The position numbers and the translations under genes are program-made. Positions 3,393-20,771 of a stretch of 64,000 nt of DNA are shown here, piece by piece; the first letter of the stretch is position 1, and each line of letters opens with the position of its first letter. The stretch lies in sequence record OR327750.1. The stretch is one strand, 5' to 3'. Below the pieces are notes generated by a model. That model saw only the letters and a list, made by a program, of their open reading frames with translations. It did not search any database and had not been told where the DNA came from. The stretch is from Escherichia phage KK4.

Positions 3393-4318
3393 TTCAGTAC
3401 CTCAATAGCATTACGTAAACCATTTGCTTTTGCATTAAGAGCTTTTAACAATTTGGTGTGTTCGGCAATCTGGGCTTCAACTTCAACCAGTCGAGATTTG
3501 AGATATTCGCGTTCTTCACTCAGGTTATCAGCCTTTTCTGCTTTAGGTTCTTTTACAACTGGCTTATATGTATTAGGGTTCTTCAGTTTAATTAGAATGC
3601 GTGAACTGTACAGCATTGAACCATTATCTTCGGTTTCGTCATACATTTCTACTACGTCCATGATTTTTAACATCATGCGGAGTTTATAAGACAACGAACG
3701 AATAGTTTTGTTGTGCTTATTAATTTCTCTAGAGTTCATGGTGCCGAGATTACGTGAGTAATAATAAGGAACCTGGATATTAATTAATACTGATGAACCA
3801 CCTGGCTTGTGTGTTACTTCATCAGCAATAACCCAATCCTTAACATGAACTGTATTTGTACGGTCATCGCCCGTGGTAAATAGTTTACGAGCATGCTTAA
3901 AAAGCATATTCACTTGGTCATTGAATTGACAAGCGAATTTATCAGCAAATTTAGTTTCGGGAATGGTAGATAACCAATCAGCCAAATGGGTCTTTTTAAC
4001 ATCGTTAACAATAGTAAATTCAACCAAATCGGTTATAGATGTCTCAGATTTAATGAAGCTCGGCTTCATAAAGTTTTTAATGTTATCACTAGCTACAGTA
4101 GAAGATAACAGACGAGAACGTTTAAACCATTGAAGCAAATTGCCTAACGAATGAGAATAAGCGTTTTGAGTATCTTTACAGATATGATTTTCCTGGCCAA
4201 CATATTGAAGGAAATCACGAAGAATATTATTGATTACTGCCCTGTGTCCTATCTGATAATTACGATGTTTAGTAATAAGACTGTCAAAATAATCAATATA
4301 ATGTTTACGAGTTTTCAT
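3389..4318 (-). CDS. hypothetical protein, paralog family member 1 (309 aa, C-terminal coiled coil)
   Basis: ATG start; begins MKTR like member 3; heptad-rich C-terminus. Confidence 0.6.
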   Translation of the reverse strand: MKTRKHYIDYFDSLITKHRNYQIGHRAVINNILRDFLQYVGQENHICKDTQNAYSHSLGNLLQWFKRSRLLSSTVASDNIKNFMKPSFIKSETSITDLVEFTIVNDVKKTHLADWLSTIPETKFADKFACQFNDQVNMLFKHARKLFTTGDDRTNTVHVKDWVIADEVTHKPGGSSVLINIQVPYYYSRNLGTMNSREINKHNKTIRSLSYKLRMMLKIMDVVEMYDETEDNGSMLYSSRILIKLKNPNTYKPVVKEPKAEKADNLSEEREYLKSRLVEVEAQIAEHTKLLKALNAKANGLRNAIEVLK

Positions 4319-13468: not shown

Positions 13469-13855
13469 TTATTCGAGTGAAAGAAGATATTTACTTTGAT
13501 AAAACATCCCGGTAATATCATCTATCGTACTTTGAATGGCTGGAGGCATTTCTTTGTAAATGCTGTTAGATTGGTCTAGTATGCGATCAATCATTTTAAT
13601 TGTGTCGGTAGGAAGTTTACTAGCATCTGGAATTGAAGGTGTGTATTTTCTACCAGAATACCCCAAATATTGCTCACCAAATTTATCAATCAAATCTGGT
13701 AACTCAGAGAAAATAAAATCGTATGCTTTGTGTCTAGCATAACTTTTAGTTTCAAAATGCGCAGAATGAAAATAAGCTTGTGCAGCCATTAATAAACCTA
13801 AGTATTCATCTGCCTTTGAAGGTTTTCCACTTTGTGAAAAGTCGCTGAATTTCAT
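13469..13855 (-). CDS. hypothetical protein, rI.-1-like by position
   Basis: 128 aa ORF immediately downstream of rI. Confidence 0.5.
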
Positions 13856-14145
13856 TCAGTCTCCAATTTAATGTTCATAATTCTAGCGTATGATTGTGCC
13901 ATCTCCGCGCCTCGTTCTATACATTCAAAATCGGAAGAGCACGGGTCATTTTTATAGGTCGTTCGCATAAAACTATAGAACTGTTCAGATGATTCTACGC
14001 TTTTATTTTCAAAAAGCATATAAACATGTCTAATACCAGATTCCATAAATTTATCAAAATGAGGATCGACATTCGCTTCAATTGGCGGAGATAAAGCAAA
14101 CGCTAATCCTAGCATGGCAAATAGTGCCGTTGCTTTTAAGGCCAT
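13852..14145 (-). CDS. rI: lysis inhibition regulator RI (periplasmic antiholin)
   Basis: 97 aa with signal-anchor; MALKATALFAMLGL...NVDPHFDKFMESGIRHVYMLFENKS matches T4 RI from memory. Confidence 0.85.
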   Translation of the reverse strand: MALKATALFAMLGLAFALSPPIEANVDPHFDKFMESGIRHVYMLFENKSVESSEQFYSFMRTTYKNDPCSSDFECIERGAEMAQSYARIMNIKLETE

Positions 14146-15771: not shown

Positions 15772-16222
15772 AATCCACCACTATTAAATCAATATCAGGA
15801 GTAAACATGTCGATTAATTTAGAAACCTTATCCCAATCACCGCCAGCAATACCACAACCTATGCGTGGAATGTAAATTACCGGTTTAAACAAAAGGGTTT
15901 CTGCCTGTAGATTTAATTCTATCATGCAGTTTACTAAAGCACCATAATCAAAATTAGGACCCGGTTCGTATTGCGTATACAAATTATAGCACATACTAAA
16001 TCCTGTAGGATTATGTTTAAAAACAATAGACATATCGCCTAATTTATCACGAGAACCGTACTCGGTAGTAGTTTTATCTATTTCTAAAATTTTGGGATAG
16101 GCTCTTGCTAATTGACCTGCTACGCCAGAGCCCATTGTGTGGAAGCAATTGCACCCGTGCGCAATAATATTACCTTGAAGAAATAGGGCGACAATATCGC
16201 CCTTGATATATTTTACAATCAT
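15743..16222 (-). CDS. macro-domain protein (ADP-ribose binding/processing fold)
   Basis: GDIVALFLQGNIIAHGCNCFHTMGSGVAGQLARAYP and PRIGCGIAGGDW resemble macrodomain glycine-rich phosphate-binding loops. Confidence 0.6.
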   Translation of the reverse strand: MIVKYIKGDIVALFLQGNIIAHGCNCFHTMGSGVAGQLARAYPKILEIDKTTTEYGSRDKLGDMSIVFKHNPTGFSMCYNLYTQYEPGPNFDYGALVNCMIELNLQAETLLFKPVIYIPRIGCGIAGGDWDKVSKLIDMFTPDIDLIVVDYESTLPASV

Positions 16223-16560
16223 CTAGTACTCAATCCTCGATTATAAGAATCTACTAAACGGTCAACCATTGAATGACAAGCGGCTTTATCTTTCTCCTCC
16301 GCAACTGAACATTCTAAGGTATTCCACTTTTTAGCATATCGTTTTAATAAAGTATCGTTCTTGTATCTGCTTGATTTATCTCTTTCTCCGTCTTTATATG
16401 CATATATTAATTTCTGCGCAAATTCAGCTTGGCATGCTTTATTTTTCCCGCAATAATCCGCGGCAGTACGGTTTACATACTCTCTAATTTCAGTATATGA
16501 TGTATTTGCTAACGCAGAAAATGAAATTAATCCTATACATAAAACCAAAATTTTAGTCAT
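16219..16560 (-). CDS. secreted small protein with signal peptide, 113 aa
   Basis: N-terminus MTKILVLCIGLISFSALANTS; four Cys. Confidence 0.5.
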   Translation of the reverse strand: MTKILVLCIGLISFSALANTSYTEIREYVNRTAADYCGKNKACQAEFAQKLIYAYKDGERDKSSRYKNDTLLKRYAKKWNTLECSVAEEKDKAACHSMVDRLVDSYNRGLSTR

Positions 16561-17098
16561 TTACTATTTCCAAAAGTTTATTATTTTTAAGGTAGTTAGC
16601 CTTTTCTAGGACTTCAGAAGCATATTTAGAACCTGCTTTAACATTCCATCCCGAATTATAAGAGGATATTGCCTTTCTTATATCACCCTTATGTATATTT
16701 AACCAATAAGAAAGTTCAATGTACGCCCAGGAAGCTGAATTGGACCGTTTATTCAACATTCTTTTTATTTCGGCATCGGTCATATTATAACCAAGTTCCT
16801 TAACTCTTGCTCGCATGGTCGGCAAATAATTTTGGAACATTCCGTAGGCATGATGCTTTGGTTTAGATTTTAAATTAACTCCAGCAGAGCTTTCTTGCCA
16901 TAAAATAGCAGCCATTATATGACCCAATCCGCTCTTATGGATATTTTTGTGTGTTTTATATTTTCCATCCTTAGAAAATTGTTCCCCGAATTGATACGCG
17001 TAACGCATGTTATCGAGTTGGACATTACTGAAAGTATGCTCGGAGCTATGTGCCATCATTGAAATGGCCAATAGACCAGCGAGTAGTGCTTTTCTCAT
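16553..17098 (-). CDS. secreted lytic-transglycosylase-like protein (SLT domain)
   Basis: Signal peptide MRKALLAGLLAISMMAHS; WQESSAG, YGMFQ and SSYNSGWN fit SLT catalytic-Glu and family motifs. Confidence 0.55.
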   Translation of the reverse strand: MRKALLAGLLAISMMAHSSEHTFSNVQLDNMRYAYQFGEQFSKDGKYKTHKNIHKSGLGHIMAAILWQESSAGVNLKSKPKHHAYGMFQNYLPTMRARVKELGYNMTDAEIKRMLNKRSNSASWAYIELSYWLNIHKGDIRKAISSYNSGWNVKAGSKYASEVLEKANYLKNNKLLEIVND

Positions 17099-17105
17099 GC
17101 TTACC

Positions 17106-17567
17106 TCATTGAGTTTTAATTACTGCTTTAGAAGCCTTTCCTGGTAAACGACGACTGTTGATAATTGCCATCCTGCATTGAAGTGACGGGTCTTTGAACT
17201 TCTCGTTAGGTTTACAAACTGTAAATCCAAGCCAAAGATTTCCATCTGTGATTTCTAAACGCCCAGGACGATATTCAATCCCATCAATAAAATCCTCATC
17301 AATATCAGGGCGTGGAGGCATACTCAAGAATTCATTAACTTCTAAAACATGGTCTTTTATTTTATGGAATAATTCAAAAACATATGTCTCATCAATCTCC
17401 CGTTGAATTGCACGATCAAGAAGATGCTGAGAATATTTTAGATGAAACGATGAGACCCCTGCTGCTTTTGATGCCTCACGAATCTCATTGTTAATTTGAC
17501 GAAACTCCGACTCAAAGTGACGACGGAGCTTATTTCGACGGATAAAAACTTCTGTGTTGATAGTCAT
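17106..17567 (-). CDS. regB: endoribonuclease RegB
   Basis: 153 aa, MTINTEVFIRRNKLRRHFESEFRQINNEIREASKAAG... matches T4 RegB from memory; consensus early promoter upstream. Confidence 0.9.
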   Translation of the reverse strand: MTINTEVFIRRNKLRRHFESEFRQINNEIREASKAAGVSSFHLKYSQHLLDRAIQREIDETYVFELFHKIKDHVLEVNEFLSMPPRPDIDEDFIDGIEYRPGRLEITDGNLWLGFTVCKPNEKFKDPSLQCRMAIINSRRLPGKASKAVIKTQ

Positions 17568-17594
17568 GTTATTCTCCTCTTAACTGATAGAAAA

Positions 17595-17624
17595 ATTATA
17601 CCACAGTCAAGAGGAAAAGTAAAC
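17595..17624 (-). promoter_or_regulatory. early promoter of regB
   Basis: GTTTAC-N18-TATAAT (consensus -10), ~28 nt upstream of regB ATG. Confidence 0.65.

Positions 17625-20240: not shown

Positions 20241-20771
<531 letters not shown>

Follow-up and report, generated by a model that had tools for sequence, protein, structure and literature searches.

Vs.1 of a T4-like phage as a predicted early periplasmic SLT-family protein, and Vs as its candidate exported partner

The T4-like gene vs.1, located in a 64,000-nucleotide (nt) stretch of Escherichia phage KK4 DNA (sequence record OR327750.1; the whole stretch is called the window below), very probably encodes a periplasmic protein of the SLT family of lytic transglycosylases, and we infer that this protein is enzymatically active. 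In addition, we lean, with clear reservations, toward a wider proposal in which Vs.1 is an early periplasmic SLT enzyme and the product of the adjacent gene, vs, is exported, translationally coupled to vs.1, and acts together with Vs.1. The window comes from a Tequatrovirus genome; between 15700 and 17700 it matches Escherichia phage GADU22 with 100% identity and hundreds of further Tequatroviruses with ~98%. A previous reading of the window made from sequence only had described two early-made proteins with signal peptides, of 181 and 113 amino acids (aa), the longer one with an SLT domain. It missed that the 181-aa protein is Vs.1 of T4 (UniProt P13311, Y06E_BPT4), whose orthologs are present in Tequatrovirus and in other Straboviridae, and that the 113-aa protein is Vs, annotated as the valyl-tRNA synthetase modifier. 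Many Vs.1 proteins of Tequatroviruses share 99-100% identity with the window protein, whose gene holds the same position between regB and vs. Since the 113-aa protein is the annotated cytoplasmic Vs, its signal peptide is where the greater interest of the finding lies.

The motifs WQESSAG, YGMFQ, and SYNSGWN are all found in Vs.1, and the proposed SLT domain was recovered by a Pfam search with a narrow margin (PF01464; score 23.4 bits, cut-off 21.3 bits, E = 4.8e-5). Indeed, 27 of the 29 Vs.1 family members matched SLT at E <= 0.01, each independently, with a best value of 1.3e-7. An alignment of 29 relatives, with identities down to 41%, revealed that E69, G86, F88, Q89, Y147, N148, G150, and Y159 are invariant and that S70 is nearly so (at least 90% of the sequences); signature motifs II-IV (G86-M-F88-Q89, S146-Y147-N148-x-G150, and Y159) are invariant or nearly invariant. 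The Glu69 motif is also retained, as E-S or E-T, in six distant relatives. When Vs.1 was aligned with E. coli Slt and MltE using hhalign, E69 fell on the Glu of "ARQES" (Glu505, precursor numbering) and of "AIES" (Glu64), and the GMFQ of Vs.1 lay opposite the GLMQ of both enzymes; these alignments to single sequences have negligible probability and serve residue correspondence only. Slt E478 (mature numbering) and MltE E64 are the established catalytic glutamates. The catalytic Glu-Ser of the earlier reading is therefore upheld, as its Glu is invariant in homologs and aligned with the catalytic Glu of Slt70 and MltE. That reading had named the lack of an SLT match, or a Glu that varies among homologs, as grounds for giving up the assignment, and neither was found.

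Because a search of the Vs.1 family profile against PDB sequences gave only a weak match, a fold search was used. The AlphaFold2 model of Vs.1 (pLDDT 88.8, pTM 0.83) has an all-helical body and an unstructured N-terminus (pLDDT ~56 for residues 1-20 and >90 beyond), with E69 at the end of the predicted helix 59-70. The best Foldseek matches in the PDB all belong to GH23 (MltD, a GH23 chitinase, Slt, LtgA, phi6 P5, and T7 gp16), and the predicted fold is accordingly that of GH23; ranks 1-23 have probabilities of 0.97-1.00 and TM scores of ~0.45-0.53, with E-values that reach only 6.6e-3. A second catalytic carboxylate distinguishes hydrolytic goose-type lysozymes from transglycosylases; the alignment contains no conserved Asp or Glu between E69 and G86, an observation at the alignment level that does not settle the chemistry. 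In PHROGs, Vs.1 belongs to phrog_600 (unknown function) and has weak matches to phage lytic proteins, and an NCBIfam search gave a family match for neither Vs.1 nor Vs.

Signal peptides were judged by an explicit rule set (a basic n-region, an uncharged h-region of 7-15 residues, and small residues at -3/-1) together with conservation. The N-terminus of Vs.1 (MRK-ALLAGLLAISMMA-HS, followed by SEH after the predicted cut) and that of Vs (MTK-ILVLCIGLISFSALA, followed by NTS) have the same layout, with basic residues first, then an uncharged hydrophobic stretch (13-15 residues), and a small-x-small site. Both minus-strand open reading frames (ORFs) and their signal-peptide layout were confirmed. 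The window has 115 ATG-initiated ORFs with a length of 60 aa or more, of which only three carry such an N-terminus, namely, Vs.1, Vs, and rI (97 aa, MALKATALFAMLGLAFALSPP..., 13852-14145, minus strand); RI, a known periplasmic antiholin, is the positive control for the rule set. The predicted mature N-terminal peptides are SEHTFSNVQLDNMR for Vs.1 and NTSYTEIR for Vs (DTSYTEIR in T4), and the predicted mature proteins have masses of 18.8 kDa (Vs.1, pI 9.65) and 11.0 kDa (Vs, pI 9.05).

The export-type layout is retained in all Vs.1 and Vs sequences of 47 related IMG/VR loci, and also in the Vs.1 relatives of Aeromonas, Acinetobacter, Kuttervirus, Felixounavirus, Citrobacter, and Klebsiella phages (six distant lineages). 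The mean pairwise identity of Vs.1 is 50% in the signal region versus 67% in the mature part, i.e., the signal evolves faster. No such contrast is seen in Vs (0.37 and 0.39), because the whole Vs protein evolves fast. Given these conserved signals, the periplasmic export put forward earlier is supported as a prediction, and we infer that both Vs.1 and Vs are exported by Sec and cleaved. A reading of Vs.1 as a SAR endolysin or as a membrane-anchored protein was rejected, since its hydrophobic region has just 13 residues, with a canonical cleavage site after it.

The 113-aa ORF is, as judged from its sequence, orthologous to the T4 ORF named vs: it is 96% identical to the 115-aa form in the T4 and T2 records (UniProt P13310) and 96-100% identical to Tequatrovirus vs ORFs, it matches phrog_1256 at E = 6.5e-40, and its map position is equal. 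Vs homologs down to 33% identity all have the basic-hydrophobic-small-x-small N-terminus. Moreover, in five loci that form one subclade, the Vs homologs carry a lipoprotein lipobox, MKKLFVLLVVFALSGC (LSGC at the signal position). A lipoprotein reading of the window Vs itself was rejected, as its "LVLC" (residues 5-8) is too near the N-terminus and has Leu at -1. The sole Met of Vs besides Met1 is residue 98; an internal start is thus absent before that residue, and no cytoplasmic, signal-less isoform is possible. The Vs model has pLDDT <50 over residues 1-18. Its Cys residues 37, 43, 84, and 95 are conserved and are placed in the model at two hairpin turns of a predicted four-helix bundle, an arrangement that fits disulfide staples. 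The family is small, with 8 representative clusters among 1.84 billion proteins and 795 phage records found by tblastn, and a comparison of Vs with solved and predicted structures returned no informative match and no relative of known function. A role as valyl-tRNA synthetase (ValRS) modifier needs a cytoplasmic location; the sequence features of the Vs family predict export instead.

We analyzed the vs.1-vs junction in the 47 loci and found that in every one of them, the two that lack regB and tk.4 included, the distance from the vs.1 stop to the start of the Vs-family ORF lies between -8 and +3 nt, over a range of Vs.1 identity from 100% to 44%. Unlike this junction, the vs-tk.4 spacing varies by up to ~650 nt. 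The vs.1-vs pair is likewise present in Acinetobacter phage AC4. In the window, the two genes overlap by 8 nt, which suggests translational coupling.

The genes regB, vs.1, vs, and tk.4 lie in this order on the minus strand, as in annotated relatives (Table 1), and a transcript that spans all four probably originates from the T4-type early promoter just upstream of regB. A Shine-Dalgarno sequence, GAGG, precedes the vs.1 ATG by 5 nt, and the ATG of tk.4 overlaps the vs stop codon (ATGA). A search for a MotA-box middle promoter between the early promoter and vs, including the sequences before vs.1 and vs, found none. Time-resolved omics of T4 places vs.1 and vs in the early class for RNA and the middle class for protein, and both proteins were detected by mass spectrometry (PMC9697503, supplement). 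The early expression expected from the sequence-only reading thus agrees with the upstream early promoter, the lack of a MotA-box promoter in between, and the published RNA class in T4.

Table 1. Features of the vs.1-vs region in the window, followed by the lipobox-bearing Vs homologs in the loci named
Feature	Description	Coordinates	Strand	Basis
Early promoter, T4-type	GTTTACT, 17-nt spacer, TGGTATAAT; upstream of regB	17595..17623	-	Promoter scan and sequence
regB	Endoribonuclease RegB, 153 aa	17106..17567	-	Pfam REGB_T4, E = 9.6e-69
vs.1	181 aa, predicted precursor of a small single-domain SLT/GH23 lytic transglycosylase	16553..17098	-	Motifs, Pfam, alignment, model
Vs.1 predicted Sec signal peptide	MRKALLAGLLAISMMAHS, codons 1-18, cut after Ala-His-Ser18	17045..17098	-	Heuristic and conservation
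Glu69 codon (GAA)	Predicted catalytic acid/base in W-Q-E-S	16892..16894	-	29/29 homologs
vs.1 stop/vs start overlap	8 nt, AAATGACTAA	16553..16560	-	Junction sequence
vs	113 aa, annotated "valyl-tRNA synthetase modifier"	16219..16560	-	Predicted exported four-helix protein
Vs predicted signal peptide	MTKILVLCIGLISFSALA, codons 1-18, cut after Ala-Leu-Ala18	16507..16560	-	Heuristic and conservation
tk.4	Macro-domain protein, 159 aa	15743..16222	-	Pfam Macro, E = 6.6e-8
Lipobox Vs homologs	L032, L033, L035, L036, L048	~3549-3875 (L033: 2495-2821; L035: 3549-3746)

Fitness values for the two genes were taken from a T4 transposon screen (Data S8, bioRxiv 10.1101/2025.11.20.689424; Table 2). In lysogeny broth (LB), insertions in vs and vs.1 are ~10-fold rarer than in the flanking non-essential genes, and these are the only two such genes in the neighborhood. 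Both are classed as non-essential in the screen, in which e, t, pseT.2, and pseT.3 are almost without insertions. The preprint reports vs as the T4 gene most depleted in M9 glucose relative to LB and describes a clean vs knockout that plaques poorly on M9; its text covers vs alone and M9 medium alone. The joint depletion of vs and vs.1 fits a shared pathway.

Table 2. Transposon insertions in vs, vs.1, and neighboring genes of T4 (mean reads per site; log2FC, log2 fold change)
Gene	LB	M9 glucose	log2FC	Significance
vs	26.6	5.0	-2.19	Adjusted p = 0
vs.1	22.6	11.9	-0.87	p = 0.0055, adjusted p = 0.155
regB	178.6	403.0	+1.17	p = 0.049, adjusted p = 0.80
tk.4	289.6	275.0	-0.07	Not significant
vs.3	652.1	626.2	-0.06	Not significant
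vs.4	265.2	262.3	-0.02	Not significant

We propose that the regB early promoter would drive transcription of vs.1 in the opening minutes of infection, and that its precursor would be exported by Sec and cut by signal peptidase I after Ser18, yielding an 18.8-kDa basic, single-domain periplasmic SLT/GH23 enzyme. If Glu69 works as in family-1 lytic transglycosylases, it would protonate the MurNAc-beta-1,4-GlcNAc bond and then activate the MurNAc C6-OH, so that glycan strands would be cut non-hydrolytically to leave 1,6-anhydroMurNAc ends. Being early and exported independently of a holin, Vs.1 would act on the wall of the living infected cell and not as a terminal endolysin. Vs, translationally coupled to vs.1, would be exported as well, and its mature form, a basic four-helix protein of ~11 kDa with four conserved Cys, may serve as an envelope partner, regulator, or targeting subunit of Vs.1. 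We regard Vs as probably an envelope protein working with Vs.1; for joint action in the envelope we would put the prospects slightly short of even, and any Vs-Vs.1 interaction is putative.

Vs.1 shares with the Slt70 C-domain, MltE/EmtA, MltC, and MltD a goose-lysozyme-like helical fold, the E-S, G-(L/M)-(M/F)-Q, and (A/S)-Y-N-x-G motifs, a downstream Tyr, and a predicted periplasmic location. Unlike Slt70, it is much smaller and has no lipid anchor, LysM, superhelical, or other accessory domain, and it has a conserved N-terminal segment of its own (residues 19-58, FSNxQLDNLxYAYxFGEQ) that is unlike family-1 lytic transglycosylases; its identity to GH23 family-1 enzymes in structural alignments is 13-19%. 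The VirB1 N-domain, P19 of plasmid R1, EtgA, IpgF, and IagB consist of a Sec signal peptide and one SLT domain of ~150-180 aa, and enzymes of the VirB1/P19/EtgA type open the wall locally in the living cell, some of them (e.g., EtgA) under the control of a partner. Compared by description, the architecture of Vs.1 most resembles these specialized transglycosylases of secretion and conjugation systems, although we know of no machine in T4-infected cells for Vs.1 to serve. The GH23 fold is also common to Vs.1 and the T7 gp16 N-terminus and phi6 P5 (Foldseek ranks 24-28, 41, and 42), but these are virion components that act at entry from outside, whereas Vs.1 has a signal peptide, is early, and is not a known virion protein. 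For Vs, the nearest precedent of a possible action is Spackle (gp61.3), an early, small periplasmic T4 protein that acts on the gp5 lysozyme (PMC7677548, PMC7650644). A comparison of Vs with Spackle detected neither sequence nor fold similarity.

Several observations weigh against a partnership of Vs and Vs.1 in the envelope. Relatives of Vs.1 occur in 2084 phage records and those of Vs in 795, and Vs.1 is found without an adjacent Vs in Aeromonas phage AS-gz, Kuttervirus heyday, Felixounavirus DE17, Citrobacter phage Ci1, and Klebsiella phage KM3; Vs would therefore be accessory to Vs.1 and not a requirement. A mirror-tree/partial-correlation test gave no specific co-evolution of Vs and Vs.1 (r = 0.72 for vs-vs.1 and 0.77 for vs-regB), and the mature proteins are both basic, which does not favor an electrostatic complex. 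In addition, insertions in vs.1 may be scarce because they have a polar effect on vs, and zinc binding in a cytoplasmic protein could be the role of the four Cys of Vs instead of disulfide formation. Finally, work by McClain, Marchin, and Neidhardt in the 1970s is said to have linked the vs locus to modification of the cytoplasmic valyl-tRNA synthetase in vivo.

The locus of AS-gz (L051) has regB and vs.1 and no Vs homolog. Two genes downstream, an unrelated predicted lipoprotein is encoded (MKKTIAALFALSVYGC..., 2417-2857), which might be a non-homologous replacement of Vs or a coincidence.

The most far-reaching form of our reading is that the "valyl-tRNA synthetase modifier" ORF encodes an exported envelope protein (a lipoprotein in one subclade) that forms a conserved two-gene module with Vs.1, that the minimal-medium defect of vs is an envelope or peptidoglycan phenotype, and that the 50-year-old ValRS link came from another ORF of the region or from association after cell breakage; we advance this tentatively, as a possibility with the odds against it. 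It is also possible, though again rather doubtful, that Vs is a true cytoplasmic ValRS modifier (the tau factor) whose N-terminus is a non-working export signal, with Vs.1 an exported transglycosylase that acts alone and the adjacency of the genes a matter of synteny. The modifier annotation is universal in phage records, and binding of Vs to ValRS with changed properties is attributed to Muller and Marchin (1975, 1977) in PMC8076793. The clean vs knockout was read by its authors as a nutrient-dependent defect, many lineages have Vs.1 without Vs, the co-evolution signal is absent, and a basic protein of 11-13 kDa could plausibly raise the affinity of the synthetase for tRNA. The tau factor is reportedly ~10 kDa, and the classical vs mutants are said to interact genetically with valS(ts) hosts, which would likewise favor a cytoplasmic Vs. 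However, every Vs homolog down to 33% identity has the export-type N-terminus, the lipobox of the subclade makes sense only for an exported protein, and a basic N-terminus with a hydrophobic segment would leave the chain facing the periplasm even if it were uncleaved. An internal start for a signal-less form is absent, and the junction with vs.1 is fixed at -8 to +3 nt whereas other junctions of the operon vary. Furthermore, N-terminally His-tagged Vs is insoluble in the E. coli cytoplasm (PMC8076793), and the searchable literature gave no account of the grounds on which this ORF had been equated with the genetic vs locus.

If Vs is exported, it could also be a dedicated periplasmic inhibitor or immunity protein of Vs.1, in the manner of Spackle and gp5, PliG/Ivy-type inhibitors, or the muramidase-immunity pairs of type VI secretion systems (T6SS). 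The gene arrangement, in which an enzyme gene is followed by a translationally coupled gene for a small exported protein, would suit such a role, as would the greater harm in M9 from loss of vs than of vs.1 and the T4 precedent of Spackle, which inhibits a muralytic enzyme and is itself a small helical protein of the periplasm (PMC7677548). We nevertheless consider it unlikely. In a pure toxin-and-inhibitor model, insertions in vs.1 should be neutral, and their ~10-fold depletion in LB argues against it; many phages have Vs.1 without Vs, neither the fold nor the sequence of Vs shows detectable resemblance to Spackle or to a known inhibitor, and both proteins are basic.

An assignment of Vs.1 to lysis, as an auxiliary secreted or SAR-type endolysin that works with holin and spanins at the end of the cycle, appears distinctly improbable. 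In Ci1, the vs.1-like gene stands directly before spanin-like genes and pseT, in DE17 it abuts a polynucleotide kinase gene, and one record labels a Vs.1 relative "putative lysin". Yet the transcription of vs.1 is early and its protein belongs to the middle class, a hydrophobic region of 13 residues that ends in a canonical cleavage site does not fit a SAR domain, and vs.1 is non-essential whereas e, t, pseT.2, and pseT.3 tolerate almost no insertions. Since T4 mutants lacking e do not lyse, Vs.1 cannot stand in for the endolysin. Last, it is very improbable that Vs.1 binds peptidoglycan as an SLT-like protein without catalytic activity or that it resembles SLT by chance. The Pfam margin is only 2 bits, hhalign gave low probabilities to single E. 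coli sequences, the family profile searched against PDB sequences returned no lytic transglycosylase and only a weak goose-type lysozyme C-terminal motif (E = 0.3), and the similarity has been termed "marginally significant" (PMC1524935), but the four SLT signature motifs, the catalytic Glu among them, are invariant in relatives down to ~30% identity, nearly all family members match SLT independently, and the confident model resembles GH23 enzymes only.

The SLT assignment of Vs.1 is already known at the annotation level and has been so for ~20 years. The wording just quoted is from Nolan et al. (2006), who cite the PSI-BLAST matches of the 2003 T4 genome review, and the exact Vs.1 sequence is named "Transglycosylase SLT domain-containing protein" in UniRef and NCBI/GenBank. 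In the searchable literature, we found no experimental study of Vs.1 and no description of an export signal or lipobox in the Vs family, of the invariant vs.1-vs coupling, or of the shared vs/vs.1 fitness signature. Collectively, the export signal and lipobox of Vs, its coupling to vs.1, and the shared fitness signature challenge the classical annotation of Vs.

T4 is usually credited with two muralytic enzymes, gp5 and e (e.g., in PMC7650644). Vs.1 is predicted to be a third, exported early and kept in >2000 phage genomes of several families. If it is active, phages with Vs.1 would modify the cell wall of a host that is still alive, well ahead of lysis, which would bear on superinfection exclusion, on resistance to lysis from without, and on the integrity of the envelope when cells grow slowly. 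The roles of Vs.1 in superinfection or envelope remodeling that had been raised before are speculation. As for vs, recently found to be the T4 gene that depends most on the medium, its product looks like an exported protein and the gene keeps a fixed place next to vs.1, in conflict with the classical annotation, and this conflict is cheaply testable.

The distant Vs.1 relatives also differ in what surrounds them. In Ci1 (L055, 1495-2682), the SLT gene is followed directly by genes for a coiled-coil protein with an N-terminal transmembrane segment and for a lipoprotein (MRKTIIALTLLLVGC), and then by pseT; the first two downstream products resemble the T4 spanins PseT.3 and PseT.2. The DE17 gene that abuts the polynucleotide kinase gene lies in L054 (1501-2722). 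These neighborhoods hint at a link between the SLT family of Vs.1 and the spanin/pseT cluster.

Other features of the window concern the genes around the pair. The lysozyme gene e is located in the window too, with its start at 20735 on the minus strand. Tk.4 of T4 has been described as AdfM, an anti-DarTG2 factor, in a 2025 preprint (bioRxiv 10.1101/2025.11.20.689424). About 19 nt into the 5' end of tk.4, just past the vs stop, lies a GC-rich palindromic hairpin, AGGGCGATATTGTCGCCCT, with a stem of 7-8 bp (16185-16203). It scores as terminator-like on either strand and might be an element of intra-operon RNA processing, stability, or attenuation. The Shine-Dalgarno region of regB (17567-17585, minus strand), AAGAGGAGAATAACATG, includes GGAG, and that of vs.1, TGAGGT, lacks it. 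GGAG is the cleavage motif of RegB, and autoregulation of regB has been published; the presence of GGAG in the regB Shine-Dalgarno region is consistent with it.

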